In this document: positions 5,153-52,893 of the stretch, piece by piece | How the letters are laid out: each line of letters opens with the position of its first letter | How positions within the stretch are numbered: position 1 is the first letter of the stretch | DNA from: Oligoflexales bacterium | GTDB taxonomy: Bacteria > Bdellovibrionota_B > Oligoflexia > Oligoflexales > Bog-1112 | Length of the DNA stretch: 64,000 nucleotides | Assembly: GCA_045105515.1 (NCBI GenBank) | Contig: JBGCDR010000181.1 | Location: 1-64,000, forward strand | Direction: 5' to 3' | Program-made: the position numbers and the translations under genes | Notes under the pieces: generated by a model | The model's database searches: none | Seen by the model: only the letters and a program-made list of their open reading frames with translations | What the model was told of the DNA's origin: nothing

Positions 5153-5201
5153 TTCGATAGGCAAAGCGACTTCTTTTTTAAAAAATTTGAGGATAACAAA
5201 G

Positions 5202-6242
5202 ATGATATATATTTTAGTAGTAATGATCTGTACCCTCATAAATGCATGCCTCTCCGCATTTGAGATGGGTTTAGTATCCATCAAACAAGCATCTTTAAAA
5301 CTACTCATAGACAAAGGGTCAAAACAAGCAACTAAACTAATGGATATGCGCGACAATCTAGAAAGTACTCTTTCGACTATCCAAGTAGGTATTACGATTG
5401 TTGCAATTATTAGTGGTACTATCGCTGGCAAACTCACTGACTTGTATGGGAGTCCATATCTAATATCTATTGGAGTTAGTGACACGTTAGCAGAACCCCT
5501 ATCGATGTCTATATTTGTAGTCTTAACAACTTTTATCACAGTGGTTTTTGGCGAACTCGTACCAAAAAGCATTGCTACAAAGTACCCTATGAATGTCTCC
5601 TTCTTTTTTGCAAAGGCAATTAGAACTGCCAATACAGCATTTTTACCTTTAGTTAAAATCTTTGAAGTCACCACTCTTTGCGTTTTGAAAACCTTCGATA
5701 TGATAGGTATGAAATCTAACAGGAAAGACCTTGAAGATGCAGATGATGCTTTCGCAATTCATAATCTTTCAAAAAAACACCGCGAATACGTCTACAATTT
5801 GGTGAACCTTCAAAAAACCTCTCTTGATGATGTGCTAGTAGATTGGACTCATGTAACAAAAATAAATACCCATATGCCTGATGTCGAAGTAGAGAATATC
5901 TTATTAAGTAGCGGTCACACACGGGTTCCAGTTATGGACAAACAAGAAATAAAAGGTCTTCTCAATGCAAAAGAGTTTTTTGCTTCTAGCAGAGGTCAAT
6001 GGCAAGATTTAGTGCACCCTGTACTACTTGTTAACGAAAACGCCTTCCCTCTCAACACATTAAGGCGGTTACAGGCTAAGAAAAGCCACATGGGTATCGT
6101 AGTTTCTATAGACGATAAGTCTCCACTGGGTATTATCACCATTGAAGATATCTTTGAGGAAATTGTTGGAGAAATTTTCGATGAAGATGATAAGTCGAAA
6201 AATAAGACGCAACAATTGAAAAAAAGAGTGCAAAATTCTTAG
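5202..6242 (+). CDS. Hemolysin-family CNNM (DUF21) plus CBS-domain membrane protein (CorC/TlyC-like)
   Basis: SAFEMGLVS, TIQVGIT, VVFGELVPKSIA, GHTRVPV, GIITIEDIFEEIVGEI; start at ATG 5202 after GAGG (ORF open from 5148). Confidence 0.9.
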   Translation: MIYILVVMICTLINACLSAFEMGLVSIKQASLKLLIDKGSKQATKLMDMRDNLESTLSTIQVGITIVAIISGTIAGKLTDLYGSPYLISIGVSDTLAEPLSMSIFVVLTTFITVVFGELVPKSIATKYPMNVSFFFAKAIRTANTAFLPLVKIFEVTTLCVLKTFDMIGMKSNRKDLEDADDAFAIHNLSKKHREYVYNLVNLQKTSLDDVLVDWTHVTKINTHMPDVEVENILLSSGHTRVPVMDKQEIKGLLNAKEFFASSRGQWQDLVHPVLLVNENAFPLNTLRRLQAKKSHMGIVVSIDDKSPLGIITIEDIFEEIVGEIFDEDDKSKNKTQQLKKRVQNS

Positions 6243-6259
6243 ATAAGATAACAAGCTAC

Positions 6260-6958
6260 TTATTTTTTCGAAAAGTCTTTCCCTATCCATACGAGTTTAG
6301 AACTCTTAGAATCTTTTTTATGTGCAACAGGAAAAAAGTATAAGAGCTGACCATTTAACCCTTTGAAATTTTTGTAAGCTACTAAGATTTGCTCGTTGAG
6401 AGGGACTGCTTTAAAAATTGCATTTGATTTAGAAGTTACATTTTCGCTACCTTTCATAAGGACTTTTACCATAATATGGTCTTTTGAGACAACCTTGGCG
6501 ACCGATCCTTTAATTTCCCCACTCTTTGGATCGCGATTAGCAGTACGCGCTCTAACCCCTCCATCAGAGACAGAACTCGCTATATTGATGGCTTTGTTGG
6601 GCCTGATTCGGGCTTTGGAGACTGTTTTTAAAAAATCCGAGTCTTTACCCTTAGTAAAGCTAATTACAACCTTCTTCACATCGCCTGATACCTTAGCTCC
6701 AAATTTCTTGCCAAGGCGTTTCATCAAGGAGCTTTGAATCATCTCGAAAGTCAAACCAACTTCTTTACCACCACTCTTTACAGTTTTACTTGGATCAATC
6801 GTAAAGCTGTAGGTTTTATCTGAATCTTTATTGTAGCTTTTTGCAATATCCGGTTTTAATTTTTTCGTGATTAGAGTTTTTCCCACTCCGGATAAACCTG
6901 TAATCGGGAACATAATCATAAAAAATACGATGGTGACTCTTGATAACATTTCAAACAC
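6260..6958 (-). CDS. Hypothetical secreted basic protein
   Basis: N-terminal hydrophobic segment, Lys-rich, SD AGGAGG. Confidence 0.7.
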   Translation of the reverse strand: MFEMLSRVTIVFFMIMFPITGLSGVGKTLITKKLKPDIAKSYNKDSDKTYSFTIDPSKTVKSGGKEVGLTFEMIQSSLMKRLGKKFGAKVSGDVKKVVISFTKGKDSDFLKTVSKARIRPNKAINIASSVSDGGVRARTANRDPKSGEIKGSVAKVVSKDHIMVKVLMKGSENVTSKSNAIFKAVPLNEQILVAYKNFKGLNGQLLYFFPVAHKKDSKSSKLVWIGKDFSKK

Positions 6959-6971
6959 CTCCTATGAAAAA

Positions 6972-7439
6972 CTATTCTGGGTAAGCTGAATAAGACACAG
7001 CAACGATCTTAGGATCAACGATAATTTTTTTATTAACCATCTTCTTCATTTTCTTCGGTACTTTGAGAAAAAAAGTTTTCTGGCCATCTTCATGTTCAAG
7101 GTAATATGAACTATTAAGCAACTTGAGAACACCAACTGCTGGCTCTCTACCTGAAGATAGTTTCAAAATCTTAAATTCTTTTGAAGCAAAACAGGAGTTT
7201 TTTGCTCCTGCAGAACCCTTCCATTCTCCAGCAACTTCGATTGTCATAGCACTTAAAGTTTGTATCTTGTTGCTTAGATCTGAGTCGCATAAACGGACAG
7301 ATTTATTTGTTTCTTTTGACTCCAAATTTACATACCGACCAGCAGTTGCCTTTGTTATTCGCACAAGTCCACTGACGGTACTTACTGCGTATGAAGGAAG
7401 TGACAATCCACAAAGTAAAAAAAATAAAATCCTATACAT
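6972..7439 (-). CDS. Hypothetical secreted protein
   Basis: Signal peptide ending SYA; SD AAGG; operon spacing. Confidence 0.7.
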   Translation of the reverse strand: MYRILFFLLCGLSLPSYAVSTVSGLVRITKATAGRYVNLESKETNKSVRLCDSDLSNKIQTLSAMTIEVAGEWKGSAGAKNSCFASKEFKILKLSSGREPAVGVLKLLNSSYYLEHEDGQKTFFLKVPKKMKKMVNKKIIVDPKIVAVSYSAYPE

Positions 7440-7476
7440 ACCTTACCTACCTCTCAATTGATTTTGCATTTTTCCT

Positions 7477-9234
7477 TTATTTGAACCTTACAACCGATAC
7501 TCCAGCATTTTCTGCCAATGTTTCTATTTCAATAGAATCATCAGTACTTTGCACTTTGTAAACAAATGGTTTCGTTTGGTAGAGGCTTATTTCAAAGGTT
7601 TCAGAATCGAGACTAGTGGCATTATCAGTGGCGTTTTCAAGCTCACCTCCATTGAATTTATAACCATATTCCTTGCCGGAATCCCCTTGGACATTGTTTA
7701 TATTGGCAATCACATCAGCAGTTTGGTAGCGACTTGCTACATCAAGGCTTGTCCCATCAAGCATCAATGCCCCAATATAATTTCCAACTATTTCTAGCCA
7801 AGAAAAGTCAGTATCAGCATACACAGTTCTGATATTTTTGATTCCTTTGTTCGGTGACTTAATCACATCAGCATAAAACTTTAACCCAGCACTTGCGCTA
7901 AGTGCACCATCTGTATAGCTAATCCCACCTTTCTGACTCATCAAGTAGTGAAGCAAAGACTGGCCTGCAGCCCGTCCATACGAATCTAGGCTTGAGTCTG
8001 AAGAGGTAAGTGCTGCAGACACAAAGAACGGATAGTTACCTGAGTAGCGGTTTTGGAGATAAATACTCGCGTAATTTTCGTAATTACCATCGTTCTTATA
8101 CCCAAATAAGTCCTCTGCAACATGTGCAGCACCCTCATCAATATATAGGTCATCGAGTCCATTCTTATAGTAATAAGAGATCGCATGAGACACTTCATGA
8201 GCTAAGGTTCCCCAATATTGTCTAACATTGGCATCGGTTTCTCCTAATCCCACTCCAGCTAGAGTCTCCGTCATTAATAAAACTGGCCGGCCTGCGCTAA
8301 CAGTCAAATCTTGATTAAAGGCACCAATGATTGAAGTAAGTGCGGAAGAGTGACCTAAACCTACAAGGTCCTCAAAATTAGCAAAGATAAAATAAGGCTT
8401 AAAAGTGATGCCATTTTTAACTGGGAAGGTATCTTCGTAAATCACGTTCTTATAAATGTCGAGAATATTTTTAATGGTCGACTCTAAGACAGTCTTATCA
8501 CTTAGCTTGTCAGAAAGACTATCTGTTACCAAGATCACACAAAAATCATCGTTTTCAATGACTGCTTCAATGCTATCTTGTTCACTAACTTCATCATCAT
8601 CTGTATCAACTCCAACGAAGAGTTCCACATCATCATCAGTGGTTGGACAGCCCTCCATAAGATTGAGGCTTTGGCCCTTCTTAGGTGTAAGACTGGGCTT
8701 AAAACTTGCAATAGAACTCTTAAGAAAAGCAGTCATAGAAGGGGTTGGGTTCAAACTCAGTTGACTTTGATCTTCTTGCTGAAGCTCATCATAGGTATGC
8801 GCTAGGGCCCAGAGTCCGTCATCTTGGGATTCTATTGGCTTCCTACGATTGAATCGATTCATAATCATTCGGTATATTTGACCCATTGATGCAACATCGG
8901 AAGGCTGTAGTAACCTTGCAGAAGATTTTTCTTTGGGTGAGAAACCTCTCAGATTTGCTGAACTCGGCAAAGTTACCGAATATTCACTTTGGCTCGTATC
9001 GCCCCCTTGCACAGTATCAATACTACCCAAGTGATAAGGCATTATTAAATACTCTTGATCCACCTCCGCATTTGCAAAGCTCACTGTTGCTTTACCATCA
9101 CTAAAAGGTTCGACCCATCCGGCTAATGCTGTACTATCACTAGCAGCATCTTCTTCAGAATCCGTGCATGCGGACATACACAGTAAGGACATAAAAATCA
9201 AACCAGTAAGCCTATAAATGAGGAAAATGCGCAT
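7477..9234 (-). CDS. Lipoprotein zinc metallopeptidase (gluzincin, M30-like)
   Basis: Lipobox MSAC; LAHEVSHAI followed by YIDEGAAHVAED. Confidence 0.7.
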   Translation of the reverse strand: MRIFLIYRLTGLIFMSLLCMSACTDSEEDAASDSTALAGWVEPFSDGKATVSFANAEVDQEYLIMPYHLGSIDTVQGGDTSQSEYSVTLPSSANLRGFSPKEKSSARLLQPSDVASMGQIYRMIMNRFNRRKPIESQDDGLWALAHTYDELQQEDQSQLSLNPTPSMTAFLKSSIASFKPSLTPKKGQSLNLMEGCPTTDDDVELFVGVDTDDDEVSEQDSIEAVIENDDFCVILVTDSLSDKLSDKTVLESTIKNILDIYKNVIYEDTFPVKNGITFKPYFIFANFEDLVGLGHSSALTSIIGAFNQDLTVSAGRPVLLMTETLAGVGLGETDANVRQYWGTLAHEVSHAISYYYKNGLDDLYIDEGAAHVAEDLFGYKNDGNYENYASIYLQNRYSGNYPFFVSAALTSSDSSLDSYGRAAGQSLLHYLMSQKGGISYTDGALSASAGLKFYADVIKSPNKGIKNIRTVYADTDFSWLEIVGNYIGALMLDGTSLDVASRYQTADVIANINNVQGDSGKEYGYKFNGGELENATDNATSLDSETFEISLYQTKPFVYKVQSTDDSIEIETLAENAGVSVVRFK

Positions 9235-9490
9235 ACCCTGACCTCGTTATAATTATTCAATAGTAACTATCATAGCCGAGTCTTTTACTGGAGTCATTAT
9301 CGATAGTTATAGACTGCTAAATGGGTCTTTTCACCTAGGTAAAAACCCGAGTTTATTTGTAAAGTGACTTGTAGATTTTGCCTACAGAGTGGATATCCAG
9401 GAGTAATCGTAAAGATTGAGCACAAGCTATTGTATAATGAAAGAGATCAACATGATTCACGGCAATGGACCTGTAGACTGAGGACAGTAA

Positions 9491-10111
9491 ATGAGCAATT
9501 CATTAGATGTAACTTTAAGGGCTACATTTGAAAAGATGCATGTGGTCATCCGGAAAAATGCTAAATTGAAATTGATAGAGTCCTCCAAATATGAAGATAT
9601 CGAGATACAAGAATTCACACCTGAAGACATAGAAAAACTTACTTGGGATCATTGGATCACCAGTATTCAACAGAAGACCGATCTAGGATCTTTTTTATTC
9701 AATGTCCATTTTTTCTCTAAAGCTGCACGAAAAATGGCCGAGCATGCATTTCAATCTTCCACCAAAATGTCCTCAAATTTCTCGCAAGCACTCATACAGG
9801 AATATACCAATATTACTGGTGGAGCCATAAAACAAAGCCTGGTAGCTGCCGGTGCAAAAATCTCTACAGACCTTCTGCAGGTTAATTTACCTGAAAGCAA
9901 GCCTAGCTATGACAAGGTCCATTTCACAGGATGGGAGGATAATCCGAAACTTGATAAATGGAAGTTTAATTTTAAAGACGATGTTATCTACTGCACCTGC
10001 AAAATCGAAATAGCAAATGAAAATGAAATTTTACAACTTCATGAATTAAAATCTATTGATGAACTTCATGAAGAAGAAGATACCGAAGACGGTGATATCG
10101 ACTTTTTATAG
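9491..10111 (+). CDS. CheX/CheC-like phosphatase family protein
   Basis: ExxN motif IQEYTNITGGAIK followed by VNLP; next to CheY. Confidence 0.6.
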   Translation: MSNSLDVTLRATFEKMHVVIRKNAKLKLIESSKYEDIEIQEFTPEDIEKLTWDHWITSIQQKTDLGSFLFNVHFFSKAARKMAEHAFQSSTKMSSNFSQALIQEYTNITGGAIKQSLVAAGAKISTDLLQVNLPESKPSYDKVHFTGWEDNPKLDKWKFNFKDDVIYCTCKIEIANENEILQLHELKSIDELHEEEDTEDGDIDFL

Positions 10112-10144
10112 ACTTTATTAAGTTTAGGTTTTAGCCAACACAGC

Positions 10145-10732
10145 ATGGAAATAAACACTAAACGAGTTTCAGATATTCAAGAAAAAAACCTGCAAGGCCT
10201 TTTGCGGCAAGCTTGTAGGTTACGTCTTTACTCGAGCTTAAAAATCGAGGGTGGCGTAGATGTCGAAGAGCTTAGCAATCCAGATGACTTTCTATATGGG
10301 CAATGGATGTCGGTCATTTTATTATCTGGCCAGGAACTTCAGTGTACTCTTAAAATGCATTATTTTAATGAATCAGCGATGGCACTCAGTTCCCATTCAC
10401 TCGGTTTAGCAAGGGCAAAAATAAAGCCCGGCATGCTGACAGACTATATGCGAGAACTAACCAATTTATTTGCTGGAGAAATAAAATCACAGTTATTTGC
10501 CAATAAGATTCTAGTTGGCATTAGTCTGCCACTCATAACACGAGGCTTCGATGAAATACTCTTTTCAGATAACTTGGGAAAATTTATCGTAAGAGATTAT
10601 TGGAAATTTCTATGGAGCGGTAACGAAATTGTTTTAACGGCTGAGACTGAGGTGTTTCAGCCTGAAATATTTAATTCTGTTACAATTAAAGAGTTCAATG
10701 CTGAAGACGAAGGCGATATTGACTTCTTATAA
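10145..10732 (+). CDS. CheX-like phosphatase family protein
   Basis: MRELTNLFAGEIK...GISLPLITRG, typical of CheX. Confidence 0.7.
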   Translation: MEINTKRVSDIQEKNLQGLLRQACRLRLYSSLKIEGGVDVEELSNPDDFLYGQWMSVILLSGQELQCTLKMHYFNESAMALSSHSLGLARAKIKPGMLTDYMRELTNLFAGEIKSQLFANKILVGISLPLITRGFDEILFSDNLGKFIVRDYWKFLWSGNEIVLTAETEVFQPEIFNSVTIKEFNAEDEGDIDFL

Positions 10733-10751
10733 ACCTTAAGGGAGCCTAACT

Positions 10752-11117
10752 ATGTCAAAAATTTTAATCGTCGATGACTCCGAAACCTTGCGCTTAGAGC
10801 TAAAAACATTTCTCGAAAGCCTTGGTCATTCTGTCGTTGAAGCTGAAAGTGGTCCAGATGGACTTGAAAAAATAAGCCAAAATACGGACGTAAATCTGCT
10901 TATATCTGATTTTAATATGCCGGGTATGGATGGTATCTCAATGTGCAAAAAGATCAAAGATGAAGCGCAATTCGCGAAGCTTCCGATCTTTATGCTAACC
11001 ACTGAATCGACCCCCGAACTTAAAAGTGTAGGCAAGGAAGCAGGTGTGATGGCTTGGATCGTAAAGCCGTTCAGTACTACAAAGCTTAAAACCGTGCTTG
11101 ATAAAATTCTAAAATAG
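10752..11117 (+). CDS. cheY: CheY-like single-domain response regulator
   Basis: ILIVDDS, SDFNMPGMDG, MLTTES, WIVKPF. Confidence 0.85.
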   Translation: MSKILIVDDSETLRLELKTFLESLGHSVVEAESGPDGLEKISQNTDVNLLISDFNMPGMDGISMCKKIKDEAQFAKLPIFMLTTESTPELKSVGKEAGVMAWIVKPFSTTKLKTVLDKILK

Positions 11118-11147
11118 AAGATTTAGGCCGCTTATCCGGGAGACCTA

Positions 11148-12116
11148 ATGACCGATCATTCCGACGAGCGAAGAGAGCTTATCAACCAGCACATGCTAGT
11201 GGCTCAAAATCTACGTGCTAGCCATAAAATTCTTTTTCAAATTGAAAGATCCAAGGCCAATACCGAAACAATGGTCGATTTATTGCCAGACTTCTACTTT
11301 GTTATCGATCAAGGTGGCAGGATTCTAAAAGGCAATATCTCTGGTGCTAAGCTTCTTAAGACTAACACAGATGGGATCATAAACCAGAACGTAGGTCAGC
11401 TTTTTTCTTCTGAATCAAGTAACATATTTTTTAATAAAATAAGCAAGTTATCTGACGCATATAGACGCACCCGCTTAAACAGAAGTGAGAACAAAACGGT
11501 TACCAGCTCATTTGAATTGCCAATTGATGCTGAAGAATACGAAACAAAAAGCATTCATTGGAACTTAAGAATTTTCGAGGGAGTTAGCCTACGCAGAGGT
11601 GCATTGATCTCTATTTTTGGGCGTGACATCACAGAAATTCGCAAGTACGAACAGCAGCTATCTGAAATATTCTCAGCAATCCCTCTCGGGATCATGATGA
11701 TCGACAACAATGGTGATGTAAATGGTCCCTACAGCGCCTATCTAGAATTTTTACTCGAGCAGGAAACCCTTAAAAACAAAAATATTTATGAAGTCTTATT
11801 CGACCCTTCTTCTGAAAATATGACATCAGAAGAAAAAAAAGGGTACCGAGAATTTCAAAACGTATTTGGTGCAGATGAAATTTTTTATAAAGTCGATAAA
11901 AAGCGCTTTCCCAAAGTACTCAAACTCCCTCTAAAAAATGGTTTTCGTTGGCTAGAAGTGACCTATCATCCTATTATTAAGGATGAAATGATAAACAAAG
12001 TGCTCTTAGTATTTAGTGATATATCTCGACAAATGAAGGAGCAAGAAAAAAATAGCAGCCAGTCTGAAGATGATTTGAGCTACCATGAAAAGCAAGGAAT
12101 CATTAAGCGCAGATAA
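11148..12116 (+). CDS. PAS-domain protein (two PAS-like repeats, no kinase output)
   Basis: LLPDFYFVIDQGGRI...GRDITE and AIPLGIMMIDNNG...FSDIS signatures. Confidence 0.7.
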   Translation: MTDHSDERRELINQHMLVAQNLRASHKILFQIERSKANTETMVDLLPDFYFVIDQGGRILKGNISGAKLLKTNTDGIINQNVGQLFSSESSNIFFNKISKLSDAYRRTRLNRSENKTVTSSFELPIDAEEYETKSIHWNLRIFEGVSLRRGALISIFGRDITEIRKYEQQLSEIFSAIPLGIMMIDNNGDVNGPYSAYLEFLLEQETLKNKNIYEVLFDPSSENMTSEEKKGYREFQNVFGADEIFYKVDKKRFPKVLKLPLKNGFRWLEVTYHPIIKDEMINKVLLVFSDISRQMKEQEKNSSQSEDDLSYHEKQGIIKRR

Positions 12117-12120
12117 CAAG

Positions 12121-13227
12121 CTAGCCCTGGTTCTCTAAATAAATTTGATCATAAATACTGAAAAACCTGGTTGCATTATCATTCACCTTAGAATGGTTCT
12201 TGCGAAAAGGATAATGAACTGATTGTAAGAACCCAGGCAGAAATTTTAACCAGTACTCTTCAACCTTTGAGGGTTCCGTTGTTTTAAGTTCGAGGGTGAT
12301 TGTAGGAAGATTTCTTTCGTTTCCCGCATAATTCCCTAAAGATCCTGGGTAGAATGAGTAGTCTACTACTCTGTAATTACGAGTTTTCTTTGAAACTGCG
12401 TAGACAAACTGCTTTGCTTTTTTTTCAATGCGCGATAAATGTACAGGCTTCTGATCACCAGGGCCGTCATAATCAAGAAAGCCTAAAGGAGCATGCACTG
12501 AGAAAATCTTATCTGGCTTGAACTTGTCGATGAGCTTAACTTGGAAAAGGGTCTCAACCTCTGTATTGGGAAAGTATCCCGGAAAATATCTCGCAACTCC
12601 ATTGCGGCGACCCCTCCAAGATTTTCCTGCCTTTTCATACCAATCTAGGGTAAAGAAATTTCGATTTACATCCACAATTCGGTTAGTTCTTAGGGGATAT
12701 TTTTGCAAAAATCCATCAGGATTAACGATAGGTGCGATAATCACTTTAATTCCATGTTTTATATATACGTCTGGATGAGATTGTAAATACCTCGCAAAAC
12801 GGAAAGATAGATGAATTGGTGTTAGCTCGTCCGGGTGGACTCCCCCCATGAAGAGAGTAGTATCCTTCCCGCTACCAAAAGAAGCGTAGATCAGTGGATG
12901 ACCAGCAACCGTTTTAAGATCGGCACGCCATTGAACACCACCACAGGGGTCACCATACCAACCATAACGCTTAAAGACCTGCTTAATATTTGTACAAAAC
13001 TTTTTGATAATCAATGCTTCACGAGGCTGTGCAATAGAATAGTGCGGCATATTGTATGGGGAAATAAATGGTATTTTAGCCAGCCCCCGCTTCAAGGGTA
13101 ATGAAGTGGCGATCATCTGCCCTTTGACCGACCATTCCCAAGTGAAGAACAGAACACCGCCGACAATAAAAAGCTTGGAAGCAATGCCTTTTCTCAGGAA
13201 AAACAAGAGAATCCTACTGCACCGCAC
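12121..13227 (-). CDS. M14 family zinc carboxypeptidase (MpaA-like murein peptide amidase)
   Basis: GGVHPDE, NPDG, DVNRNF, SVHAP, YPGSLG, TLEL motifs. Confidence 0.85.
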   Translation of the reverse strand: MRCSRILLFFLRKGIASKLFIVGGVLFFTWEWSVKGQMIATSLPLKRGLAKIPFISPYNMPHYSIAQPREALIIKKFCTNIKQVFKRYGWYGDPCGGVQWRADLKTVAGHPLIYASFGSGKDTTLFMGGVHPDELTPIHLSFRFARYLQSHPDVYIKHGIKVIIAPIVNPDGFLQKYPLRTNRIVDVNRNFFTLDWYEKAGKSWRGRRNGVARYFPGYFPNTEVETLFQVKLIDKFKPDKIFSVHAPLGFLDYDGPGDQKPVHLSRIEKKAKQFVYAVSKKTRNYRVVDYSFYPGSLGNYAGNERNLPTITLELKTTEPSKVEEYWLKFLPGFLQSVHYPFRKNHSKVNDNATRFFSIYDQIYLENQG

Positions 13228-13535
13228 AAACTGATAATTCGATAAATGAATTGCTTAGTCTCCTTAAAACAGCGATTCCTCTTCAAGTTCCTATATCAAA
13301 TTCTATATTTATTTCTTGAATGACTTAAGCTGTCAATTTGTTCCTAGTTTAATTTACGGAATGGTGAAAGAACTTAATCCCCTTCCATTTATTGGCTTGT
13401 ATCGCCATGAATGTGAGATAACATGAGTATTCCTGTTTTAAGTAAATTTGTGAGCAGCCTCAAGCAGCCAAGTGATATACTTATTAAATATAGCGATTCT
13501 TAGGGATTTTATAGACAAAACAAGTAGGGAAATAG

Positions 13536-14372
13536 ATGTCTAGCAATTACTTTGTTAAGCTTGAGCAATTTGAGGGGCCCCTCGACTTATTGCTGCATTT
13601 GATCCGAATGCATGAGCTAAACATTTTTCAGATTGACTTGTTTATCCTTACTTCTCAATATCTTGATTATCTGCGTCTTATGAAGTTTAGAGACCTTAAA
13701 GATGCCGCTGCATTTATGGAAATGGCAGCAAGCCTTATCGAGATTAAATCGAGCCACCTTTTACCCAATGAGTCCACGAATGAAGGTGAAGAAGGTGACC
13801 TAGCTGAAGAAGAGGATCCCGCTACGATTTTACAAAAGCGCTTATTCGAATATGACACCTTCCGTAAAGCTTCAGAATTTTTGATGGAAAAACCTGTGGG
13901 CGGAGGGCTCATTGCTAGCAGTTCGGAGTGGCGTCGTATAGCCCCATTTTATGATCATTTAGAGTCCCCCTTAAGAGGTGATCCAAGCACCCTATTGGTC
14001 CTCTATGAACAAATGCTTAGCTCGCTTGCGGAAAAGCGTCCTGTGACTGTTAAAGCCGTCACCGAATCGCTCACCGTGGAACACGTTATCTCCAAGCTCA
14101 AGGAGTATGTGGAAAAACTTGGATTTATCATGTTTCAAAAGCTCATGCCCAAAATGGAGTCTCGATACGAGCTAGTTGCAAATATTCTTGCCATTCTGCA
14201 GTTGGTGAGAGACAGAGAGCTCAAACTTTACCAAGAAGAAATGCAGGGGCCAATTTGGTTGTACACCCAGCGCCTTAATGAAAAGGATCTTCCAGATGAG
14301 GCGTTTGAAAATTTCTCTGAAATCCCAAAAAAGAAACCTGAAAAATCAGAGCCCGCACCTAACACCTTATAA
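13536..14372 (+). CDS. scpA: Segregation and condensation protein A
   Basis: FEGPLDLLLHLI, ITS/QYLDYL-type segment, LIEIKSSHLLP; upstream of scpB. Confidence 0.93.
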   Translation: MSSNYFVKLEQFEGPLDLLLHLIRMHELNIFQIDLFILTSQYLDYLRLMKFRDLKDAAAFMEMAASLIEIKSSHLLPNESTNEGEEGDLAEEEDPATILQKRLFEYDTFRKASEFLMEKPVGGGLIASSSEWRRIAPFYDHLESPLRGDPSTLLVLYEQMLSSLAEKRPVTVKAVTESLTVEHVISKLKEYVEKLGFIMFQKLMPKMESRYELVANILAILQLVRDRELKLYQEEMQGPIWLYTQRLNEKDLPDEAFENFSEIPKKKPEKSEPAPNTL

Positions 14373-14391
14373 AACCAAACAAGAGTGAAGT

Positions 14392-15312
14392 ATGACCGGT
14401 ATATTTGACAAAGAAGCGCCACTAACGCCCAAGCCTACTCCTGCTAAAAATGAGGAACCCTCTTCTCTGAATCTCGAAGATTCAGAGGAAAGCTATAGCA
14501 AAAATGCTGAATTCGAAATTGAATTAGAACCCTTTATAAACCCAACTGATGGCGAGCAGCCTGCCTCAAGTATCACCGAAATCGCTCCGCAACAGCTTTC
14601 TCAAGCTGCTGAAGATCCCACAGAAGACGAGCAACTTGTTTTATTTGAGGATGAATTGAATTTGCGCGGAAAGGTAGAGGCTATACTGTTTGCTGCCCCC
14701 ACTCCACTTAAAGCTTCAGAAATTTTTGAGTTAATTCAGGAAGAAGGAATTAATATCAGAGACATCCTTGAAGTGACGGAAAGTCTTCAGCGCTTCTACC
14801 AAGAGAAGGGAGGTGGATTCAAACTGACCCACCAAAAAGGGAAAGGCTATCAGTTTCAAACTGTCACTACTGCATCCTATTTGATGGAACGCCTATTTTC
14901 ACAAAGACCCAGACCCCTTTCGCGTGCAGCTCACGAGACCCTTGCAATTATTGCCTACAGGCAACCCGTAACAAGGGCAGATATCGAATTTATCCGTGGT
15001 GTGGATGCTGGTAGTATTATTAAAAACCTCCTCGAACGGAACCTAATCCAATGCGTTGGAAGAAAGGAAGACTCACCAGGGAAGCCAATGGTTTTTGGCA
15101 CAAGCACAGAGTTCCTCAAAACATACCGTTTGAAGAGTCTTGAAAGCCTTCCTCCACTCGATTCGTTCCAACCAGCCCAAGACGTTATGGAACAAGCACT
15201 CGAAAAAATCGATGCAAAACAGGAGATTGACGTTGAGGCGTTGATTACACAAAAGCCAGATGGTATTCATAAGCCCGTCTCATCTTCCGCAAACGAAGAA
15301 GTCGAAAAATAA
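14392..15312 (+). CDS. scpB: SMC-Scp complex subunit ScpB with acidic N-terminal extension
   Basis: VEAILFAA, LSRAAHETLAIIAYRQPVTRADIEFIRGV. Confidence 0.95.
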   Translation: MTGIFDKEAPLTPKPTPAKNEEPSSLNLEDSEESYSKNAEFEIELEPFINPTDGEQPASSITEIAPQQLSQAAEDPTEDEQLVLFEDELNLRGKVEAILFAAPTPLKASEIFELIQEEGINIRDILEVTESLQRFYQEKGGGFKLTHQKGKGYQFQTVTTASYLMERLFSQRPRPLSRAAHETLAIIAYRQPVTRADIEFIRGVDAGSIIKNLLERNLIQCVGRKEDSPGKPMVFGTSTEFLKTYRLKSLESLPPLDSFQPAQDVMEQALEKIDAKQEIDVEALITQKPDGIHKPVSSSANEEVEK

Positions 15313-15381
15313 TAATACTCTTAAGTTTGTTGTCAGCATCAAGTTAACACATGCTTAATCCTCCATTAAATAGGACAGAAA

Positions 15382-16128
15382 ATGGACGGTATTCGCATAC
15401 AAAAATGGATTTCAGAATTAGGTCTAGCATCTCGCAGAGAAGCTGAAAGATGGATCACTGAAGGTAGGCTAGAAATCAATGAAAAAGTTGCTTCGCTTGG
15501 TGATCGCATTAACCCTGTGGGTGACAGAGTTTTTCTAGACGGCAAAAAACTAGTTGCGAAAACCCCTCCAAAAATTTATTGGATGCTGCACAAACCTAAT
15601 GAAACATTGACATCAACAGCAAGGGATGGAAATAAAGCAAGAATATTTGATCTCCCTAAGCTACAAAAACAGTCTTTTCATATCTTCCCCATAGGTCGCT
15701 TGGACTTTAAAACCGAGGGCCTACTATTACTCACAAATGACGGAGAATTGTGTCATCGTCTTTGTCACCCTAAATACAAGCTCCCTCGCTTCTATCAAGT
15801 CCTAATCAAAGGCAAAGTAACCAGTGAGCAAATAAAACAAATTCGTAAAGGAATAGAGTTAGATGATGGCAAAGTAAGATGTGAGATTGTACCAGCTTAT
15901 GGGGTAAACCTAGGAAAATCAAAGGGGAGTTGGTATTTTGTGACTGTGTACGAAGGTAGAAACAGACTAGTTCGACGAATATTCGAACATTTTGATCACA
16001 AAGTAATTCGACTTGTTCGCTATGGATTCGGTGATTTACGTTTAAGTGCGAGCCTTAAGCCTGGTGATTACAGACAGTTAAGTTCTCAGGAAATCAAATA
16101 TCTCAAGGGTTCTGTACAGATCAATTAA
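15382..16128 (+). CDS. rluB: Ribosomal large subunit pseudouridine synthase (RluB/RsuA family)
   Basis: S4 domain SRREAE, GRLDFKTEGLLLLTNDG, EGRNRLVRR; scpAB-rluB synteny. Confidence 0.88.
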   Translation: MDGIRIQKWISELGLASRREAERWITEGRLEINEKVASLGDRINPVGDRVFLDGKKLVAKTPPKIYWMLHKPNETLTSTARDGNKARIFDLPKLQKQSFHIFPIGRLDFKTEGLLLLTNDGELCHRLCHPKYKLPRFYQVLIKGKVTSEQIKQIRKGIELDDGKVRCEIVPAYGVNLGKSKGSWYFVTVYEGRNRLVRRIFEHFDHKVIRLVRYGFGDLRLSASLKPGDYRQLSSQEIKYLKGSVQIN

Positions 16129-16259
16129 GGCCCAATCAGGCACAAAATTTTGTTAATTTTTCTATTCTCACCTTAAAATTCAACTTACTAAAATAACTGA
16201 GATAATCATAAATAATTGGGTATTAAGATAGGATCTATAGGTGCACCTATTAAAACATA

Positions 16260-16288
16260 TTGAAAAAAATCAAAAAATCGGTTAGATT
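16260..16288 (+). promoter_or_regulatory. Putative sigma70 promoter of the nucleotide transporter gene
   Basis: TTGAAA-N17-TAGATT. Confidence 0.45.
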
Positions 16289-16512
16289 TGCCGCAAAAAT
16301 GAGGAGTAGGTTTTTTCTCACGAATCCAAATTTGGACTACTGCTAAGAATCCAAGATCTAATCTCATTTTTTAAGAAGTAGTTGCTAAACAAGATCGAAT
16401 CGCCTGAGTGAAAATTCCATATCCTTCTTGTTGAACAAATTATCAAATTTATTTTGACTAATATTGGTCTTCGTGACTATCGAAAACATATTTCAAAAAA
16501 GGACTTTAACCT

Positions 16513-18051
16513 ATGAGTTCAAGTAACGCGAGTACTGCAGAGTTCAGTAAATTAAGACAGATTCTGTGGCCTATCCATGGATTCGAAATGAAAAAATTTC
16601 TACCCATGTTCATCATGTTTGGGTGTGTGAGCTTAAACTACAGTTTATTGAGACTAACCAAAGATACCTTAGTTATTAACGCAGCATCTTCTGGAGCTGC
16701 TGTTCTTCCATACTTGAAGCTTTGGTGCACAACACCTGCAGCTATTCTATTTATGATGTTTTACATCAAACTCGCATCTATGCTAAGCCGTAAAAACTTA
16801 TTCTATGCAGCAATGCTTCCATTCCTGCTATTTTTTCTAGTATTTCCATATCTATTATTTCCCAATATCGATGTACTTCACCCAACAAGCTCCGCTGACG
16901 CTCTATTATCTTTCTTACCAGCAGGCCTACATGGACTCGTGGAAGTTTACCGTAACTGGACCTTCTCACTTTTCTACGTAATGGCAGAATTGTGGGGAAG
17001 TATCTGCTTATCTACCCTCTTTTGGGGATGCGCAAACGAAGTTACCAAAGTAAGTGAAGCTAAGCGATTCTATGGCTTCCTTGGAATTGGGGCTAATATC
17101 CCACTTCTTTTTGTTGGTAGCACCGTTAAGGAGATCCTAAGTTTAAACGACTGGGGCGCTTCAATTAGAGTATTAATGGGAATTTGCTTCGTGGTTGCTG
17201 TTTGTGTAATGGCCTTATACTGGTACCTCAATAACGTGGTTATGGAAGATCCTAGATTTAAAATCACTGAAGTTAAGAAGAAAAAGAAAAAAGTAAAAAT
17301 GGGCTTTGCACAAAGCTTAAAAGTTCTTAGCACCTCAAAGTACCTTGCTTGTTTAGCGTTTATGGTACTCGCATATGGTATCTCCGTAAACCTTGTCGAA
17401 GTCTCTTGGAAACAATATGTCAAAGAACTATTCAAAGGTGACAATGCTGGCTATCTCCAGTTCACCAGTAACTGGATGTCTTACACTGGCCTTGCTAGTA
17501 TCATTTTTATGTTATTTGGCACCAGCAACAGTTTACGAATCCTAGGCTGGGGAAAAACTGCACTCATCACTCCCGTCGTCTTGTTCGTCGCATCAGCAGC
17601 TTTCTTCGGCAACCTGATGTTTGAAGATGTCATGATGGGCATCATGGGCACTCTTAGCATGTCTCCTTTGTTTATCGCTTGTTGGATTGGTGGCTTCCAT
17701 AATACCTTCGGGAAAAGCTCCAAGTACTCTTTCTTTGACCCCACCAAAGAAATTGCATACATTCCGCTTGACGAACACACTAAAAAAACTGGTAAAGCAG
17801 CTATCGACGGTGTAGGTGGTCGCCTTGGAAAGTCTGGCGGTGCTGCTATCAACATGATTTTGATCGGATTACTAGGTTCAGTTGAAGCAATCACAAGCTA
17901 CGTTGGCGTGTTTACGCTGATTACTATTGGCTTTTGGATTGTAGCTGCGAATGCTCTTAACAAGCAGTTTATTGCTCTTACTGAAAAACCAGAAACAACA
18001 GAGGCGAACGAGTCTGAAAAATCCTCTGACGCAGTTCCTGCTAAGGCTTAA
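16513..18051 (+). CDS. Nucleotide transporter, NTT/TLC (ATP:ADP antiporter, AAA) family
   Basis: LWPIHGFEMKKFLPM, TKDTLV, AELWGS, FWGCANE, EAKRFY, NLVEVSWK, KYSFFDPTKEIAYIPLD, GKAAIDGVGGRLGKSGG. Confidence 0.95.
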   Translation: MSSSNASTAEFSKLRQILWPIHGFEMKKFLPMFIMFGCVSLNYSLLRLTKDTLVINAASSGAAVLPYLKLWCTTPAAILFMMFYIKLASMLSRKNLFYAAMLPFLLFFLVFPYLLFPNIDVLHPTSSADALLSFLPAGLHGLVEVYRNWTFSLFYVMAELWGSICLSTLFWGCANEVTKVSEAKRFYGFLGIGANIPLLFVGSTVKEILSLNDWGASIRVLMGICFVVAVCVMALYWYLNNVVMEDPRFKITEVKKKKKKVKMGFAQSLKVLSTSKYLACLAFMVLAYGISVNLVEVSWKQYVKELFKGDNAGYLQFTSNWMSYTGLASIIFMLFGTSNSLRILGWGKTALITPVVLFVASAAFFGNLMFEDVMMGIMGTLSMSPLFIACWIGGFHNTFGKSSKYSFFDPTKEIAYIPLDEHTKKTGKAAIDGVGGRLGKSGGAAINMILIGLLGSVEAITSYVGVFTLITIGFWIVAANALNKQFIALTEKPETTEANESEKSSDAVPAKA

Positions 18052-18080
18052 GAAGAGCCCTCATTTCTCAAATCAAAAAT

Positions 18081-19816: not shown

Positions 19817-19894
19817 TGGCGTCCCCAGGGGGATTTGAACCCCCGTCGCCGCCGTGAAAGGGCGGTGTCCTGGGCCAGGCTAGACGATAGGGAC
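19817..19894 (-). tRNA. tRNA-Glu (TTC)
   Basis: Reverse complement folds as a cloverleaf: anticodon arm CCGCC-CTTTCAC-GGCGG, GGTTCAAATCC T-arm, encoded CCA. Confidence 0.97.
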
Positions 19895-19906
19895 CTGGTA
19901 ATCTCG

Positions 19907-19982
19907 TGGTGAGCCCACCTGGATTCGAACCAGGGACCCGCACATTAAAAGTGTGCTGCTCTGCCAGCTGAGCTATGAGCCC
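19907..19982 (-). tRNA. tRNA-Lys (TTT)
   Basis: GGGCTCATAGCTCAGCTGG..., anticodon arm GCACA-CTTTTAA-TGTGC, GGTTCGAATCC, encoded CCA. Confidence 0.97.
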
Positions 19983-30334: not shown

Positions 30335-32182
30335 TTGGAAAGCTATATTAAAGATGATATCGGGTTCATAAATATCGAACCTCACGCTGACCTAATCAGC
30401 GAAAAAGGTTTTGAATATCTTAAAAATCTTAGATCCGAACTCCTAGAGTTCTCTAAGCAAAAGTTAAGCACTATTTTTTTCATCCAGCTGGAAAAAGTAG
30501 AAGATAATTTGGAGTGCTGGGAAAAAAAAACAAGAAACGATCTTTTGCTACATGATTTATACAAAAAAATTCTATTTCTTAGATCAGTTCTTTATTTTAT
30601 TCATAACAGCGCACAACAATTTATCTATATAGGTGGAGATAGCTGTCTTGGATCTTTTTGGGAACTAGCTTTATGCTGCGATAAACGTATGTGGTTTGCG
30701 GCTGATGGCACTGTAGGATTCCCCGAAATAGATCTAGGATTTTCTCCATTAGGGGGAAGTCTAGAACATCTTGCCGAGGAATCCTCTAGAACCAAGGATC
30801 AATGGTTTGAGCAATCTACCTTGACTCTTACTAGAGCAAAAGAAAAAGGTTTTATAGATTTTTTAGGTGGCTCAACGTTTCATCCCGAGTACGCTATTAA
30901 TTGGGTCAAAGAGAATTCGCAGGGATCAAGTAATAGAAAAGTACAACCGGAAACTAACTTTAAGCCACTTGAGTGGGACAAAATCCAGGAACTAGAAAAA
31001 CAATGGTTAGCTATTAAACGGATCACAAACTTATCTCAGTCATGGGAATATGCCTGGAGTCTCAATAAATCAAAACGCTGGTTCAAAACTTCACAGGAAT
31101 ACGAAAATTTAATCTCTTTTGTCTTAGGTAGATTCATTCTCGCTCCTTCATTAAAAAGGCTTGCAACAAAAGTAGATATTGGCAAATTTCAGGCTGAACA
31201 TATTGATCATAAGGTTGTATATATAGATAGTGAACTGTGGGCACCACCACTCGAAATCTTTGGCTACCTTCTAATGAATCAATATAGGATCGTATTCTTT
31301 GGTGAAAATCCAAAAGTTTTAGCTTCGCTACTTGAACGTATGTTTCTTAAATTAGATCGATTGGAAGATAAACAGCTTTTAAAAAAACTCTGGTCAAAAT
31401 ATGTCAGTTGGTTTCATGGAAACAAAATCGGTCCAAAATCTATCGCAATTAGATGGAACATCGGTGATACCATTGAGATCTTTTTCAACAACAGAACATT
31501 TCATTTCCTCAATTTAGAAAGTAACCTTTTTGATGCCAAAAAAGGTTATATGGAAAGAGTAGCTCCTAGTACTGATCAAATTGAAGAAAAAAGAGTAGAG
31601 GACCTAGTCAATAAAATAAGTTTTGGAGTTATTAAAGAAAAGATTATAGGCAAAGATACTCCTATCAGCAGTTGGATTAGATTAATGATCCTCCAAGAGA
31701 TCATTAAATTAGCAAACAATTTTGAAGGTGAAATTGACAAACTCTTATCTAGTCTGAATCAAAAAGGATGGAGGTTTGCAGGATCTGAAGAAAGATGGGG
31801 TCATTTTCTTCAGACCAGGAGAGGAAGTATTTATCCAGACAAAGGAGTTTGCTTTCCGGGCAAGGATATTTGGAACCTTGGAAGGTGGAAGCAAGTTTAT
31901 ACCCTTCTCCAACCAAAGAAAAAATCCTCTAGATATTGGAACCCTGCAGAAATGGAAGTTCACTTAAGCCTATACTTACTTGCACTTAGTGAGTACTTAT
32001 GTAGAAAAAATTTCTTTCAACATGAAAAACAATCTTTATTACTACTTAGCGAAGCAATTGGCTTTCCCCGAGGCTTAGGAAACCCAAAGGACTATATGCT
32101 GTGCTGGGGAAGAAGAAGGTACAACTTATATAAGAATCGATTTTGGCCTTACTTAGAGAACACAAAAGGAATCAGCCAATGA
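30335..32182 (+). CDS. Divergent FadJ/FadB-like protein: crotonase domain plus degenerate dehydrogenase region
   Basis: CLGSFWELALCCD and VGFPEIDLGFSPLGG crotonase motifs; C-terminal IGFPRGLGNP; no GxGxxG. Confidence 0.6.
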   Translation: MESYIKDDIGFINIEPHADLISEKGFEYLKNLRSELLEFSKQKLSTIFFIQLEKVEDNLECWEKKTRNDLLLHDLYKKILFLRSVLYFIHNSAQQFIYIGGDSCLGSFWELALCCDKRMWFAADGTVGFPEIDLGFSPLGGSLEHLAEESSRTKDQWFEQSTLTLTRAKEKGFIDFLGGSTFHPEYAINWVKENSQGSSNRKVQPETNFKPLEWDKIQELEKQWLAIKRITNLSQSWEYAWSLNKSKRWFKTSQEYENLISFVLGRFILAPSLKRLATKVDIGKFQAEHIDHKVVYIDSELWAPPLEIFGYLLMNQYRIVFFGENPKVLASLLERMFLKLDRLEDKQLLKKLWSKYVSWFHGNKIGPKSIAIRWNIGDTIEIFFNNRTFHFLNLESNLFDAKKGYMERVAPSTDQIEEKRVEDLVNKISFGVIKEKIIGKDTPISSWIRLMILQEIIKLANNFEGEIDKLLSSLNQKGWRFAGSEERWGHFLQTRRGSIYPDKGVCFPGKDIWNLGRWKQVYTLLQPKKKSSRYWNPAEMEVHLSLYLLALSEYLCRKNFFQHEKQSLLLLSEAIGFPRGLGNPKDYMLCWGRRRYNLYKNRFWPYLENTKGISQ

Positions 32183-33063
32183 GCTTTAGAGTAAAATTAG
32201 AGCAATCCATAGAAAAAAAGAACTCCAGTCTATGCATTGGAATAGATCCTCACCAAAATTCATGGCCTCCACTATTCGAAAAAATCGAGCAAGAACAAGG
32301 GCGATTAAAAGCGATTTCATATTGGGCACATAGTACCTTAGAAATTGCAGCTTCAAGAATACCTGCTGTAAAGTTTCAAAGTGCTATGTTTGAATCTTAT
32401 GGATCAGAAGGTTTTCACCTACTCCACGAACTTTGTTTAAAAGCAAAAGAATATGGATTCCATGTTATCCTTGATGCCAAAAGAGCTGATATCTCCTCGA
32501 CCATGGAAGCATATGGAAGAAGCGCCTTCGAAATTTTTCAAGCAGATAGTCTTACAGTTTTACCTTATATGGGTTCAGATATTTTAGTGGCTTTAGCACC
32601 TTGGTTAAGAGATGGAAAAGGTATCTATATTGTCTGGATCAGCTCTAACTCATCAGGTCAGGAAGTACAGCTTCTAGAAACTGCCGACAAAAAAACTACT
32701 GCTCACAGGGTACTAGAATGCTTTGAAGCCCGGTCTGCGGAACTCTCGATAGAGAATTCATTTGGATTGGTTTTAGGGGCAACAATGCTCGACATTCTTA
32801 ATGAGGATCTTTGGAAAAGTGCTCAAACTTACCCTTTGCTTCTCCCGGGACTTGGAGCACAGGGTGCTTCACCTGAGCACCCTAAGATAAAAAGACTTAG
32901 CGAGCTTGGTTCGAACCTCCTCCCCATATCTAGATCCTTGACCGGTATAGGGGACAAGGGAACCGACTTATCTGGTCTGACTACCCTAGATGAGTTTCAA
33001 AGAGCCCTTAACTCAAGAATTAGCAAATATTTAAGGCCACTTACAGTAAAACCTCCCTATTGA
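32179..33063 (+). CDS. pyrF: Orotidine-5'-phosphate decarboxylase
   Basis: LCIGIDP, VKFQSAMFE, ILDAKRADISST, GLVLGAT, LLPGLGAQG; ATGA overlap with the previous gene. Confidence 0.93.
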   Translation: MSFRVKLEQSIEKKNSSLCIGIDPHQNSWPPLFEKIEQEQGRLKAISYWAHSTLEIAASRIPAVKFQSAMFESYGSEGFHLLHELCLKAKEYGFHVILDAKRADISSTMEAYGRSAFEIFQADSLTVLPYMGSDILVALAPWLRDGKGIYIVWISSNSSGQEVQLLETADKKTTAHRVLECFEARSAELSIENSFGLVLGATMLDILNEDLWKSAQTYPLLLPGLGAQGASPEHPKIKRLSELGSNLLPISRSLTGIGDKGTDLSGLTTLDEFQRALNSRISKYLRPLTVKPPY

Positions 33064-36945: not shown

Positions 36946-37378
36946 AGATTTAAAAGTACTTATAGTAGAAGATTCCCCGCTAGTGCAAAAACAAATAACC
37001 CTAGCATTTGAAGATGCTGGCTTTGATGTCATCGGAAAAGCTCAAAACGGTGTGGAAGCGCTGATGAAATGCAAGAAAGTTCAACCCGATCTAATAAGTA
37101 TCGATGTCATTATGCCAGAAATGCATGGAATAGATTTGTATAAGCAAATAAAAAAACTGTACCCAGATATAAAGTGCTTATTCATAACCTGTTTACGATC
37201 AGACCAAATCAAGGATGCATTCCCAAATGAAATACAACCTTTCCAATTCCTTGACAAACCAACAAATCCTGAGACTCTATATGCTGCTGTGGAAACTCTC
37301 TACGAAACCCCTACTCAGGAAACTGAGCCAACTAACGATGAAAAAAGCCCAGAGCTCCCGACCCAAGGAGCATCATAA
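36926..37378 (+). CDS. Single-domain response regulator
   Basis: VLIVEDS, AQNGVEA, IDVIMPEMHG, LDKP. Confidence 0.88.
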   Translation: MDQAMLRDLKVLIVEDSPLVQKQITLAFEDAGFDVIGKAQNGVEALMKCKKVQPDLISIDVIMPEMHGIDLYKQIKKLYPDIKCLFITCLRSDQIKDAFPNEIQPFQFLDKPTNPETLYAAVETLYETPTQETEPTNDEKSPELPTQGAS

Positions 37379-51994: not shown

Positions 51995-52274
51995 GATATA
52001 AACAGAACCTCACCTGTAAAAATCAACCAAGAACTTTCATTAATCTAACAAAGTACTAAAATTAATAGTATATTTTCAAGAATTTCTAACAATAACCCCT
52101 CTATTTTGATCATAAAATATAGTGATTAGTCATTTAATATTGGTCTAATAAAGTTTTTTTTGGATCTTTTTCGCGCACATTCCGAAACATATAGTATCAA
52201 ACGGAAATACATCATATTACTAAGAACTCTCATCTTCTCTTTGCTTGAAGATGGGTATTTAGAAGGTCAAAGAA

Positions 52275-52760: not shown

Positions 52761-52893
52761 TTTATTATTCTTTTTCGAATCCCTCCCTCCTCTTTTAATT
52801 AAATAGAGCATCATATACGTCTAATGCAGGAAGAAGTTTCTTATGCTACGATGGGAAAATCTGCAGGTATTTTCCACTGAAGGAGCCAACCTT

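Follow-up and report, generated by a model that had tools for sequence, protein, structure and literature searches.

The stretch of DNA analysed here, referred to below as the window (64,000 nucleotides, positions 1 to 64,000 of contig JBGCDR010000181.1 in assembly GCA_045105515.1 of an Oligoflexales bacterium), carries at 16513..18051 on the forward strand the gene of a nucleotide transporter of the NTT/TLC family, an uninterrupted open reading frame (ORF) that starts with ATG and encodes 512 amino acids, and whose assignment draws on Pfam, NCBIfam, a Protein Data Bank (PDB) match, phylogenetic trees and the ratio of non-synonymous to synonymous substitutions (dN/dS). The Pfam TLC profile (PF03219) was matched with 558.9 bits (E 1.4e-167; cut-off 21) by residues 7-486, which cover positions 4-491 of the 491 of the profile, and NCBIfam TIGR00769 ('NTP/NDP exchange transporter') with 518.8 bits against a cut-off of 387.2. 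Neither a HEAT nor a cNMP fusion was found in the protein, the sole other Pfam match (DUF443) being under its cut-off, in agreement with an earlier reading made from the letters alone (the sequence-only reading), which had described a full-length NTT free of such fusions. Residues 9-503 could be aligned with PDB 9j3n_A ('ADP,ATP carrier protein 1'; E 6.6e-144) and residues 24-504 with the chloroplast carrier PDB 9j3j_A (402.1 bits, E 3.5e-119), and a crude Kyte-Doolittle scan returned approximately 11-12 hydrophobic stretches. As judged from these matches, the protein is a member of the NTT/TLC family (TC 2.A.12) with a predicted 12-helix, MFS-type fold, homologous to the solved NTT structures. 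The motifs TKDTLV, AELWGS, NLVEV and GKSGG are found at positions 49, 158, 293 and 439, respectively.

The gene was compared with its ortholog in an independent metagenome-assembled genome (MAG) of the same genus (G001, Oligoflexales bacterium isolate DT_79). Protein identity is 95% and DNA identity 83%, with a dN/dS value of 0.022 (dN 0.034, dS 1.56), indicating that the gene is under strong purifying selection, and for this reason it is taken to be functional. The G001 contig that carries the ortholog (C401, 16.9 kb) is collinear with positions 5184-18053 of the window over 12.9 kb, NTT gene included, the common gene order being response-regulator, PAS, M14 peptidase, scpA, scpB, rluB and NTT. 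In a large protein collection, an NTT homolog (95%) and a DnaK homolog (96%) were also found, each of which lists a longest contig of 98752 bp. Contig chimerism, which had been named beforehand as something to be checked, is very unlikely in view of the collinear same-genus MAG and of these NTT and DnaK homologs.

The source genome (G000) is a MAG of 6.29 Mb split over 461 contigs, with an estimated completeness of 90.9% and an estimated contamination of 4.83%. Its fragmentation, its contamination and its size compared with the 4.6 Mb of a congener are what could be invoked to propose that the gene reached the assembly through a chimeric contig or chlamydial contamination. Such an origin is, however, hardly credible: the collinearity with G001 includes the NTT gene, the GC content of the gene (0.390) equals that of the window (range 0.344-0.436), all six NTT paralogs of the genome have a G001 ortholog, and even the nearest proteins from outside the family reach no more than 52% identity with the window protein. 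It may be added that, besides its size, the MAG contains two citrate synthases with almost the same score (450.7 and 425.2 bits), and that it may include a second strain or some foreign contigs. The nearest named relatives by DnaK, one of the markers that had been suggested for placing the organism, are MAGs labelled Deltaproteobacteria, 'Zetaproteobacteria', Oligoflexales and Bdellovibrionota, with Pseudobacteriovorax at 72% identity; the source is an uncultured Oligoflexales bacterium of the Bdellovibrionota/Oligoflexia lineage.

Counting the NTT genes, as the sequence-only reading had recommended, yielded six full-length TLC genes in G000, on contigs C74, C181 (the window), C166, C40, C393 and C190. 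The five other copies (L001, L003-L006) are 32-46% identical to the window protein, and since each of the six has an ortholog in G001, their number is not a binning artefact. The copy on C74 (L001:1408-3018, 537 amino acids) is the one 46% identical to the window protein; among the paralogs it most resembles chlamydial NTT1, and its contig also carries atpD. The type with the widest distribution across the family is that of C393, present in 12 of 16 genomes in the 131-row tree described below. Strong TLC matches were obtained in all 15 other genomes of the family (f1), which holds one to six full-length NTTs per genome, while among the 40 relatives the 25 genomes from 15 other families of the order gave weak matches only (best E 7.3e-9). 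A wider sample of the phylum comprised 131 genomes, G000 included, from 19 families, with a strong NTT match defined by E <= 1e-40: besides G000 and the 15 of 15 other f1 genomes, this threshold was reached in 1 of the 33 genomes of family f19 and in none of the 82 genomes of the remaining 17 families. Strong NTT matches are thus confined, in the sampled genomes, to family f1, bar one f19 genome. As a separate matter, two further loci of G000 (L007 and L008, on C286 and C410) gave weak, partial, MFS-like TLC matches, as did many genomes of the order. Such matches (approximately 380-450 amino acids, E 1e-4 to 1e-12) occur inside and outside family f1 and, by their sequences, are a separate, widespread and distant branch, not true NTTs.

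For the phylogenetic analysis, the six paralogs were combined with 39 NTT loci from the 15 family genomes, the best matches of 80 named genomes and all 16 strong paralog matches (E <= 1e-40) from five chlamydial genomes. ORFs covering fewer than 430 profile positions (e.g. L016, L067 and partial neighbour ORFs), seven duplicates and L069, which had no passing ORF, were dropped, leaving 131 rows for FastTree; a set of 59 rows, hand-picked to cover every clade, was used for IQ-TREE (LG+C20 PMSF). The two trees agree. An NTT1-like clade (41 rows out of 59; ultrafast bootstrap, UFBoot, 96; SH-aLRT 98) gathers the best match of each sampled chlamydial genome, Endozoicomonas, MAGs labelled Legionella and Pseudomonadales, and Oligoflexales sequences that form three groups: (a) the C74 type, from G000, G001, G006 and G010; (b) the window type, from G000, G001, G005, G007, G010, G014 and G015 (seven rows, support 100/100); and (c) a third type, from G008, G009, G011 and G013. 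The remaining four G000 paralogs fall outside this clade, each with family orthologs, and in both trees the window clade lies apart from the sampled non-NTT1 chlamydial paralogs. The window protein is thus placed by its sequence within the chlamydial NTT1-like clade, on a long branch. It shares with chlamydial NTT1/Npt1 (PamNTT1 of Protochlamydia amoebophila; PDB 9j3n/9j3o) the family, the length class, this strongly supported clade and the four K/E/E/K residues discussed below, and differs from it in an identity of 42-49% to the chlamydial best matches, the long stem and 13 changed positions out of 26 that are specific for the clade. The carriers also differ, being obligate intracellular chlamydiae in one case and flagellated, respiring Oligoflexales of 4.6-6.3 Mb in the other. 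Plastid AtNTT1 (PDB 9j3j/9j3l/9j3m), which is made with a transit peptide and resides in a eukaryotic organelle, belongs to the same family but is more remote from the window protein than the chlamydial one.

Relations within the NTT1-like clade are unresolved. When groups (a), (b) and (c) were forced into one clade the topology was not rejected (p-AU 0.843), the constrained tree being 28 log-likelihood (lnL) units above the quick tree and, by plain subtraction with no formal comparison, approximately 3.6 lnL below the careful one, so that one shared origin for these three Oligoflexales groups is neither shown nor rejected. Legionella- and Pseudomonadota-labelled MAGs were considered as donors and discarded, their sister pairing with the window clade being weak (94/74). 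Of the label 'Chlamydia/Rickettsia-type' initially given to the protein, the chlamydial half agrees with the 96/98 clade, and the rickettsial half found no counterpart, as no Rickettsiales record is present among the best 80 loci and none is in the tree. A name look-up for 10 chlamydial and Endozoicomonas proteins returned generic names only ('NTP/NDP exchange transporter', 'AAA family ATP:ADP antiporter').

Four conserved charged residues of the window protein, K50, E159, E296 and K440, had been taken as typical of ATP/ADP exchangers. All four are indeed present in the four motifs. However, they are kept in every clade of the 131-row alignment, including all six clades of the genome's own paralogs (with Asp in place of E296 in two clades), and the chlamydial non-NTT1 paralogs have Lys in 10 of 11, Glu in 11 of 11, Glu in 9 and Asp in 2 of 11, and Lys in 10 of 11 at the corresponding positions. 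The four residues were for this reason rejected as a marker of ATP/ADP exchange: on the alignment they define the NTT family, not the substrate, and because they are kept in all sampled NTT clades they provide no evidence for ATP/ADP exchange. The window protein has the same family membership and the same four residues as Npt2, PamNTT2-5 and Tlc2-5, the non-NTT1 NTTs, whose substrate classes comprise NTP/H+ symport, broad NTP exchange and NAD+/ADP exchange. Three of the residues presumably correspond to AtNTT1 K155, E245 and E385. The fourth, K440, aligns with residue 445 of the NTT1-like protein of Protochlamydia sp. and matches AtNTT1 K527, equated with PamNTT1 K446 in PMC2606016. There, Trentmann et al. 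(2008) report that this lysine is required in ATP and Pi handling, that it is the residue binding the gamma-phosphate or Pi, and that it is conserved in ATP/ADP transporters; the proposal that the GKSGG lysine is tied to phosphate coupling is thus in line with this article. For PamNTT4, the substrate class was taken from PMC1951785.

As for the organism, a motile and metabolically capable genome had been expected, and the gene content of G000 bears this out. Genes were found for the ATP synthase beta subunit, for subunit I of a haem-copper oxidase (COX1), for three members of the citrate-synthase family and for true PurF (506 bits) and PurH (622.8 bits), together with eight flagellin-type genes and 14 MCP signalling-domain matches. 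The FHIPEP profile detected one gene only (FlhA/SctV-type), hence no second type III apparatus in G000, and the single gene is assigned to flagellar export. A search for carB in G000 gave no match; as the same-genus G001 has the gene and G000 is 90.9% complete, this is not read as a loss and is possibly an assembly gap. On this gene content the cell is predicted to be motile, chemotactic, respiring and purine-prototrophic.

The interpretation that best accommodates these data, to which a probability of approximately 0.5 is given, is that the window ORF encodes a predicted functional inner-membrane NTT of chlamydial NTT1/Npt1 descent that, as one of six paralogs, would carry out a PamNTT1-like import of ATP in exchange for ADP and Pi, at the expense of a living, most probably eukaryotic, host; what is carried, in which direction and from which kind of host are deductions. 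In the proposed mechanism, a single central binding site would alternate between the two sides of the membrane, ATP would be taken up from outside and ADP and Pi would be released in exchange, with K440 of the GKSGG motif contacting the gamma-phosphate or Pi; by homology with PamNTT1, the exchange would be electroneutral and independent of the membrane potential. During a host-associated stage, the set of six paralogs would draw ATP and other nucleotides from the host cytosol, on top of the ATP synthesized by the bacterium itself. For PamNTT1, a strong preference for importing ATP in exchange for exported ADP, independent of the membrane potential, is described in PMC1951785. This preference also bears on the opposite direction of transport, in which respiratory ATP of the bacterium would be supplied to the host, a role that has been proposed in the case of 'Candidatus Azoamicus' (PMC7969357 and PMC11549363). 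An antiporter is reversible in principle and both an ATP synthase and a haem-copper oxidase are encoded in the genome; nevertheless, an outward exchange is considered highly improbable, by taking into account the import preference of PamNTT1, the six paralogs and the nucleotide-synthesis genes not found in relatives, which fit import, and a large genome and a motile cell that are unlike those of a reduced ATP-providing endosymbiont.

A number of observations weigh against ATP import from a host by the window protein, some of which concern the protein itself and others its carriers. With respect to the former, the link from clade to biochemistry consists of PDB bit scores and of the general background on chlamydial NTT1 function, the tree having been built without characterized reference proteins. 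The bit scores, in turn, contradict the description of the window copy as 'canonical': with 483.6 bits to 9j3n and 402.1 bits to 9j3j, it scores about as a non-NTT1 paralog of the Protochlamydia genome (494.2 and 398.8 bits), above the C166 paralog (387 and 332.9 bits) and well below both the NTT1-like clade member of the same Protochlamydia sp. (650.6 and 557.5 bits) and the C74 paralog (624.6 and 501.6 bits). The stem of the window clade (0.57 in the IQ-TREE phylogeny) exceeds those of the other two Oligoflexales groups (0.33 for the C74 clade, 0.34 for the third). Twenty-six columns were taken as NTT1-specific, the requirement being conservation of 90% or more among the 74 NTT1-like rows from outside the Oligoflexales and sharing by no more than 25% of the 39 other-paralog rows; these groups of rows come from the tree, which makes the count partly circular. 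Twenty-one of the 26 are kept by the C74 clade, 16 by group (c), 15 by the window clade by majority and 13 by the window protein itself. The Oligoflexales-specific window subfamily, which grows to 29 members (FastTree support 1.0) once the 40 best database matches are added, differs from the NTT1-like proteins at position 44 (Ser in 28 of 28 in place of Thr), 48 (Ile, Leu or Val in 28 of 28 in place of Asp), 168 (Thr in 24 of 29 in place of Leu), 322 (Met in 26 of 29 in place of Ser), 433 (Gly in 29 of 29 in place of Val) and 436 (Gly in 26 of 29 in place of Ala). Several of these signature positions are only 2-7 residues from K50, E296 or K440, and positions 48 and 433 are occupied in the window clade by the kinds of residue found in non-NTT1 paralog clades. 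Furthermore, G000, G001 and G010 also carry the more canonical C74-type copy, which in G000 is found in the same genome and in the same NTT1-like clade as the window protein and is the better candidate for ATP/ADP exchange.

From these values a serious rival emerges, namely a shifted nucleotide specificity of the window copy: the C74 type would be the ATP/ADP exchanger, and the window type a neofunctionalized paralog transporting GTP, CTP, UTP, dNTPs or NAD, or using a different coupling, so as to supply building blocks rather than energy. It is judged possible, though clearly less probable than ATP import. The greater proximity of the C74 protein to the solved ATP/ADP carriers, the majority loss in the window clade of 11 of the 26 columns with fixed replacements flanking K50, E296 and K440, the non-NTT1 residue types at D48 and V433, and a long stem combined with strong present-day purifying selection would all fit a past functional shift, and a duplication within the family is possible since one Oligoflexales NTT1-like clade is not rejected. 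On the other hand, the window type is the sole NTT1-like gene in four of its seven carriers (G005, G007, G014 and G015), where any NTT1 function would fall to it; the window clade still lies inside the NTT1-like clade; of the 170 columns in which NTT1-like proteins are conserved to 90% or more, the window type retains 131; and the careful free tree keeps the window and C74 clades apart. The pattern suggests that the window subfamily is specialized and under selection, not decaying, with a cargo that may still be ATP/ADP.

With respect to the carriers, nothing forces energy parasitism on G000, given its ATP synthase, COX1, citrate synthase, purF and purH. In favour of import, by contrast, in the other f1 genomes, which are smaller (1.8-4.6 Mb versus 6.3 Mb), true purF and purH were both not found in 6 of 15 members (G003, G006, G007, G009, G010 and G013) and carB in 8 of 15, with the qualifications that the relatives are MAGs, in which a gene not found may be unassembled, and that purF and purH lie within approximately 4 kb in genera g7 and g11, so that their joint absence may reflect one missing contig. 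In G014 the carB copy contains two stop codons. In the six genomes where purF and purH were not found, carB was not found either, and pairs of the same genus differ (G011 versus G013, G007 versus G012/G014). The distribution looks like repeated, recent loss of purF, purH and carB in the family, with purF and purH linked in some genera. However, the closed genome G019, of another family, is without purF, purH and carB and also without an NTT, so that loss of nucleotide synthesis in the order needs no NTTs. The ATP synthase is found in 13 of the 16 f1 genomes (12 of the 12 of high quality) and FlhA in 10 of 16. Also in favour of a host-associated stage, ankyrin-repeat matches occur in 14 of 15 f1 genomes as opposed to 11 of 25 from other families; G003 has 99 of them and G009 15, but G000 has only four. 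Separately, very large ankyrin-repeat expansions, counted as Ank_2 matches, were noted in small genomes of the order, G003 (99), G019 (16) and G034 (88), the last two of which are closed genomes of family f5 and without an NTT; this family may be a second, NTT-independent host-associated lineage.

The f1 data fit the use of the nucleotide pool of another cell, with the bacterium's own energy metabolism mostly kept, and the identity of this cell is where a further alternative arises. The importer could serve predation on bacteria or scavenging from lysed cells, in a predator like Bdellovibrio and like organisms or in a free-living cell, in either case with no eukaryote association. The Bdellovibrionota/Oligoflexia lineage, the large genome with respiration and purine synthesis, the few ankyrin matches of G000 and the lack of a detected injectisome (no second FHIPEP gene) are compatible with this alternative, as are the eight flagellin genes and 14 MCPs, many flagellin and MCP genes being reminiscent of attack-phase predators. 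It is nevertheless unlikely, as 114 of the 115 sampled genomes from other families of the phylum gave no strong NTT match, a killed prey would provide no regenerating pool of ATP, and the ankyrin expansion in the f1 member G003 points to eukaryotic hosts. The named NTT holders recovered outside the Oligoflexales (Chlamydiota, Endozoicomonas and a Legionella-labelled MAG) are, moreover, presumably associates of eukaryotic cells; from this, and because only a living host regenerates ATP, a eukaryotic host would be the likelier partner. Of the initial proposal of a host- or prey-dependent stage, the part that relied on the charged residues is to be abandoned, and the proposal itself is strengthened by the six paralogs, by the NTTs in every sampled genome of the family and by the synthesis genes not found in several relatives.

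NTTs are a classic marker of energy and nucleotide parasitism, and their known holders are for the most part plastids and obligate intracellular bacteria whose genomes are reduced. Taken by itself, the window gene is unremarkable within this well-known family, and it is the setting, along with the lineage-specific subfamily, that is unusual: an NTT set is present in every sampled genome of one Bdellovibrionota-related family in which flagella, chemotaxis and respiration are still there, as is purine synthesis in G000, and this gene set points to a host-dependent stage of life. If so, family f1, which spans 1.8-6.3 Mb, one to six full-length NTTs and purF, purH and carB either found or not, would offer a natural series for the onset of dependence on host nucleotides, before genome reduction. 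A tentative extension, somewhat less probable than ATP import by the window protein, is that the family, most members of which would still be flagellated and respiring, is part-way from a free-living or predatory life to intracellular nucleotide and energy parasitism of eukaryotes, having acquired a chlamydia-like NTT toolkit, expanded it to up to six paralogs with an NTT1-derived subfamily of its own with a remodelled binding centre, and repeatedly lost purine and pyrimidine synthesis in separate genera. The subfamily, with fixed changes beside functional residues, is in any case a clear target for work on specificity. A full-text search found no literature linking Oligoflexia, Oligoflexales or Bdellovibrionota with NTTs; the topics co-occur in one article (PMC11549363), in separate and unrelated sentences. 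In Aiptasia, amplicon data indicate that the abundance of Oligoflexales follows the density of the algal symbiont, and their role is termed a mystery (PMC10701089).

Turning to the surroundings of the NTT gene, a 384-bp intergenic region (16129..16512, forward strand) separates its start from the end of a rluB-like ORF at 16128 and is presumed to be the promoter region. Three sigma-70-like matches lie at 16150-16288, but the scan is uninformative because the number of sites in the scanned region (4) is not above that of shuffled sequences (mean 5.2). No Rfam family was found upstream of the gene that would indicate a regulatory RNA, the Rfam gathering scan of the window returning two tRNAs only; these are neighbouring genes at 19820-19982 on the reverse strand, downstream of a rhodanese gene and near the NTT locus. 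A weak terminator-like hairpin at 18045..18059 (forward strand; 5-pair stem with three G-C pairs, T-rich tail) overlaps the NTT stop codon and is only suggestive as a terminator, because three such sites were found in the scanned region versus 1.7 +/- 1.4 in shuffles. Among the sequencing runs carrying the stretch no RNA run is listed; the three DNA runs belong to a single study, labelled 'plant metagenome', which may be the source itself, so that nothing independent about habitat or expression can be drawn from them.

Of the remaining gene content attributed to the window, pyrF, fliG and comEC were recovered by Pfam, at 32143-33063 (OMP-decarboxylase of the PyrF type), 52843-53880 (forward strand) and 35590-36945 (forward strand), respectively. 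The last encodes a ComEC 'Competence'-domain core of 451 amino acids with no further domain at E <= 1e-5, and thus no metallo-beta-lactamase domain. The chemotaxis-type genes reduce to two CheY-like receivers, at 10752-11117 and at 36926-37378 (the latter overlapping the end of the ComEC gene), and a PAS protein, with no CheA, CheW or MCP in the Pfam scan of the window. DnaK, Ffh and AspS are also encoded there. The fliG gene is isolated: the ORFs upstream of it (50091-52760) have no Pfam match and none is FliF-sized, tgt follows on the opposite strand, and the FlhA and flagellin genes of G000 are on contigs other than that of fliG. Between ffh and aspS, in the reverse-strand region 59660-61592, a small ORF with a weak, sub-cut-off match to the phage T4 gp19 tail-tube family (PF06841, 26.9 bits) overlaps a 496-amino acid ORF without a family. 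Finally, 48629-50035 (forward strand) encodes a 468-amino acid protein with a cytochrome c554/c'-type domain, the neighbours of which are an OmpR-type regulator (47889-48566) and two ORFs without a family.

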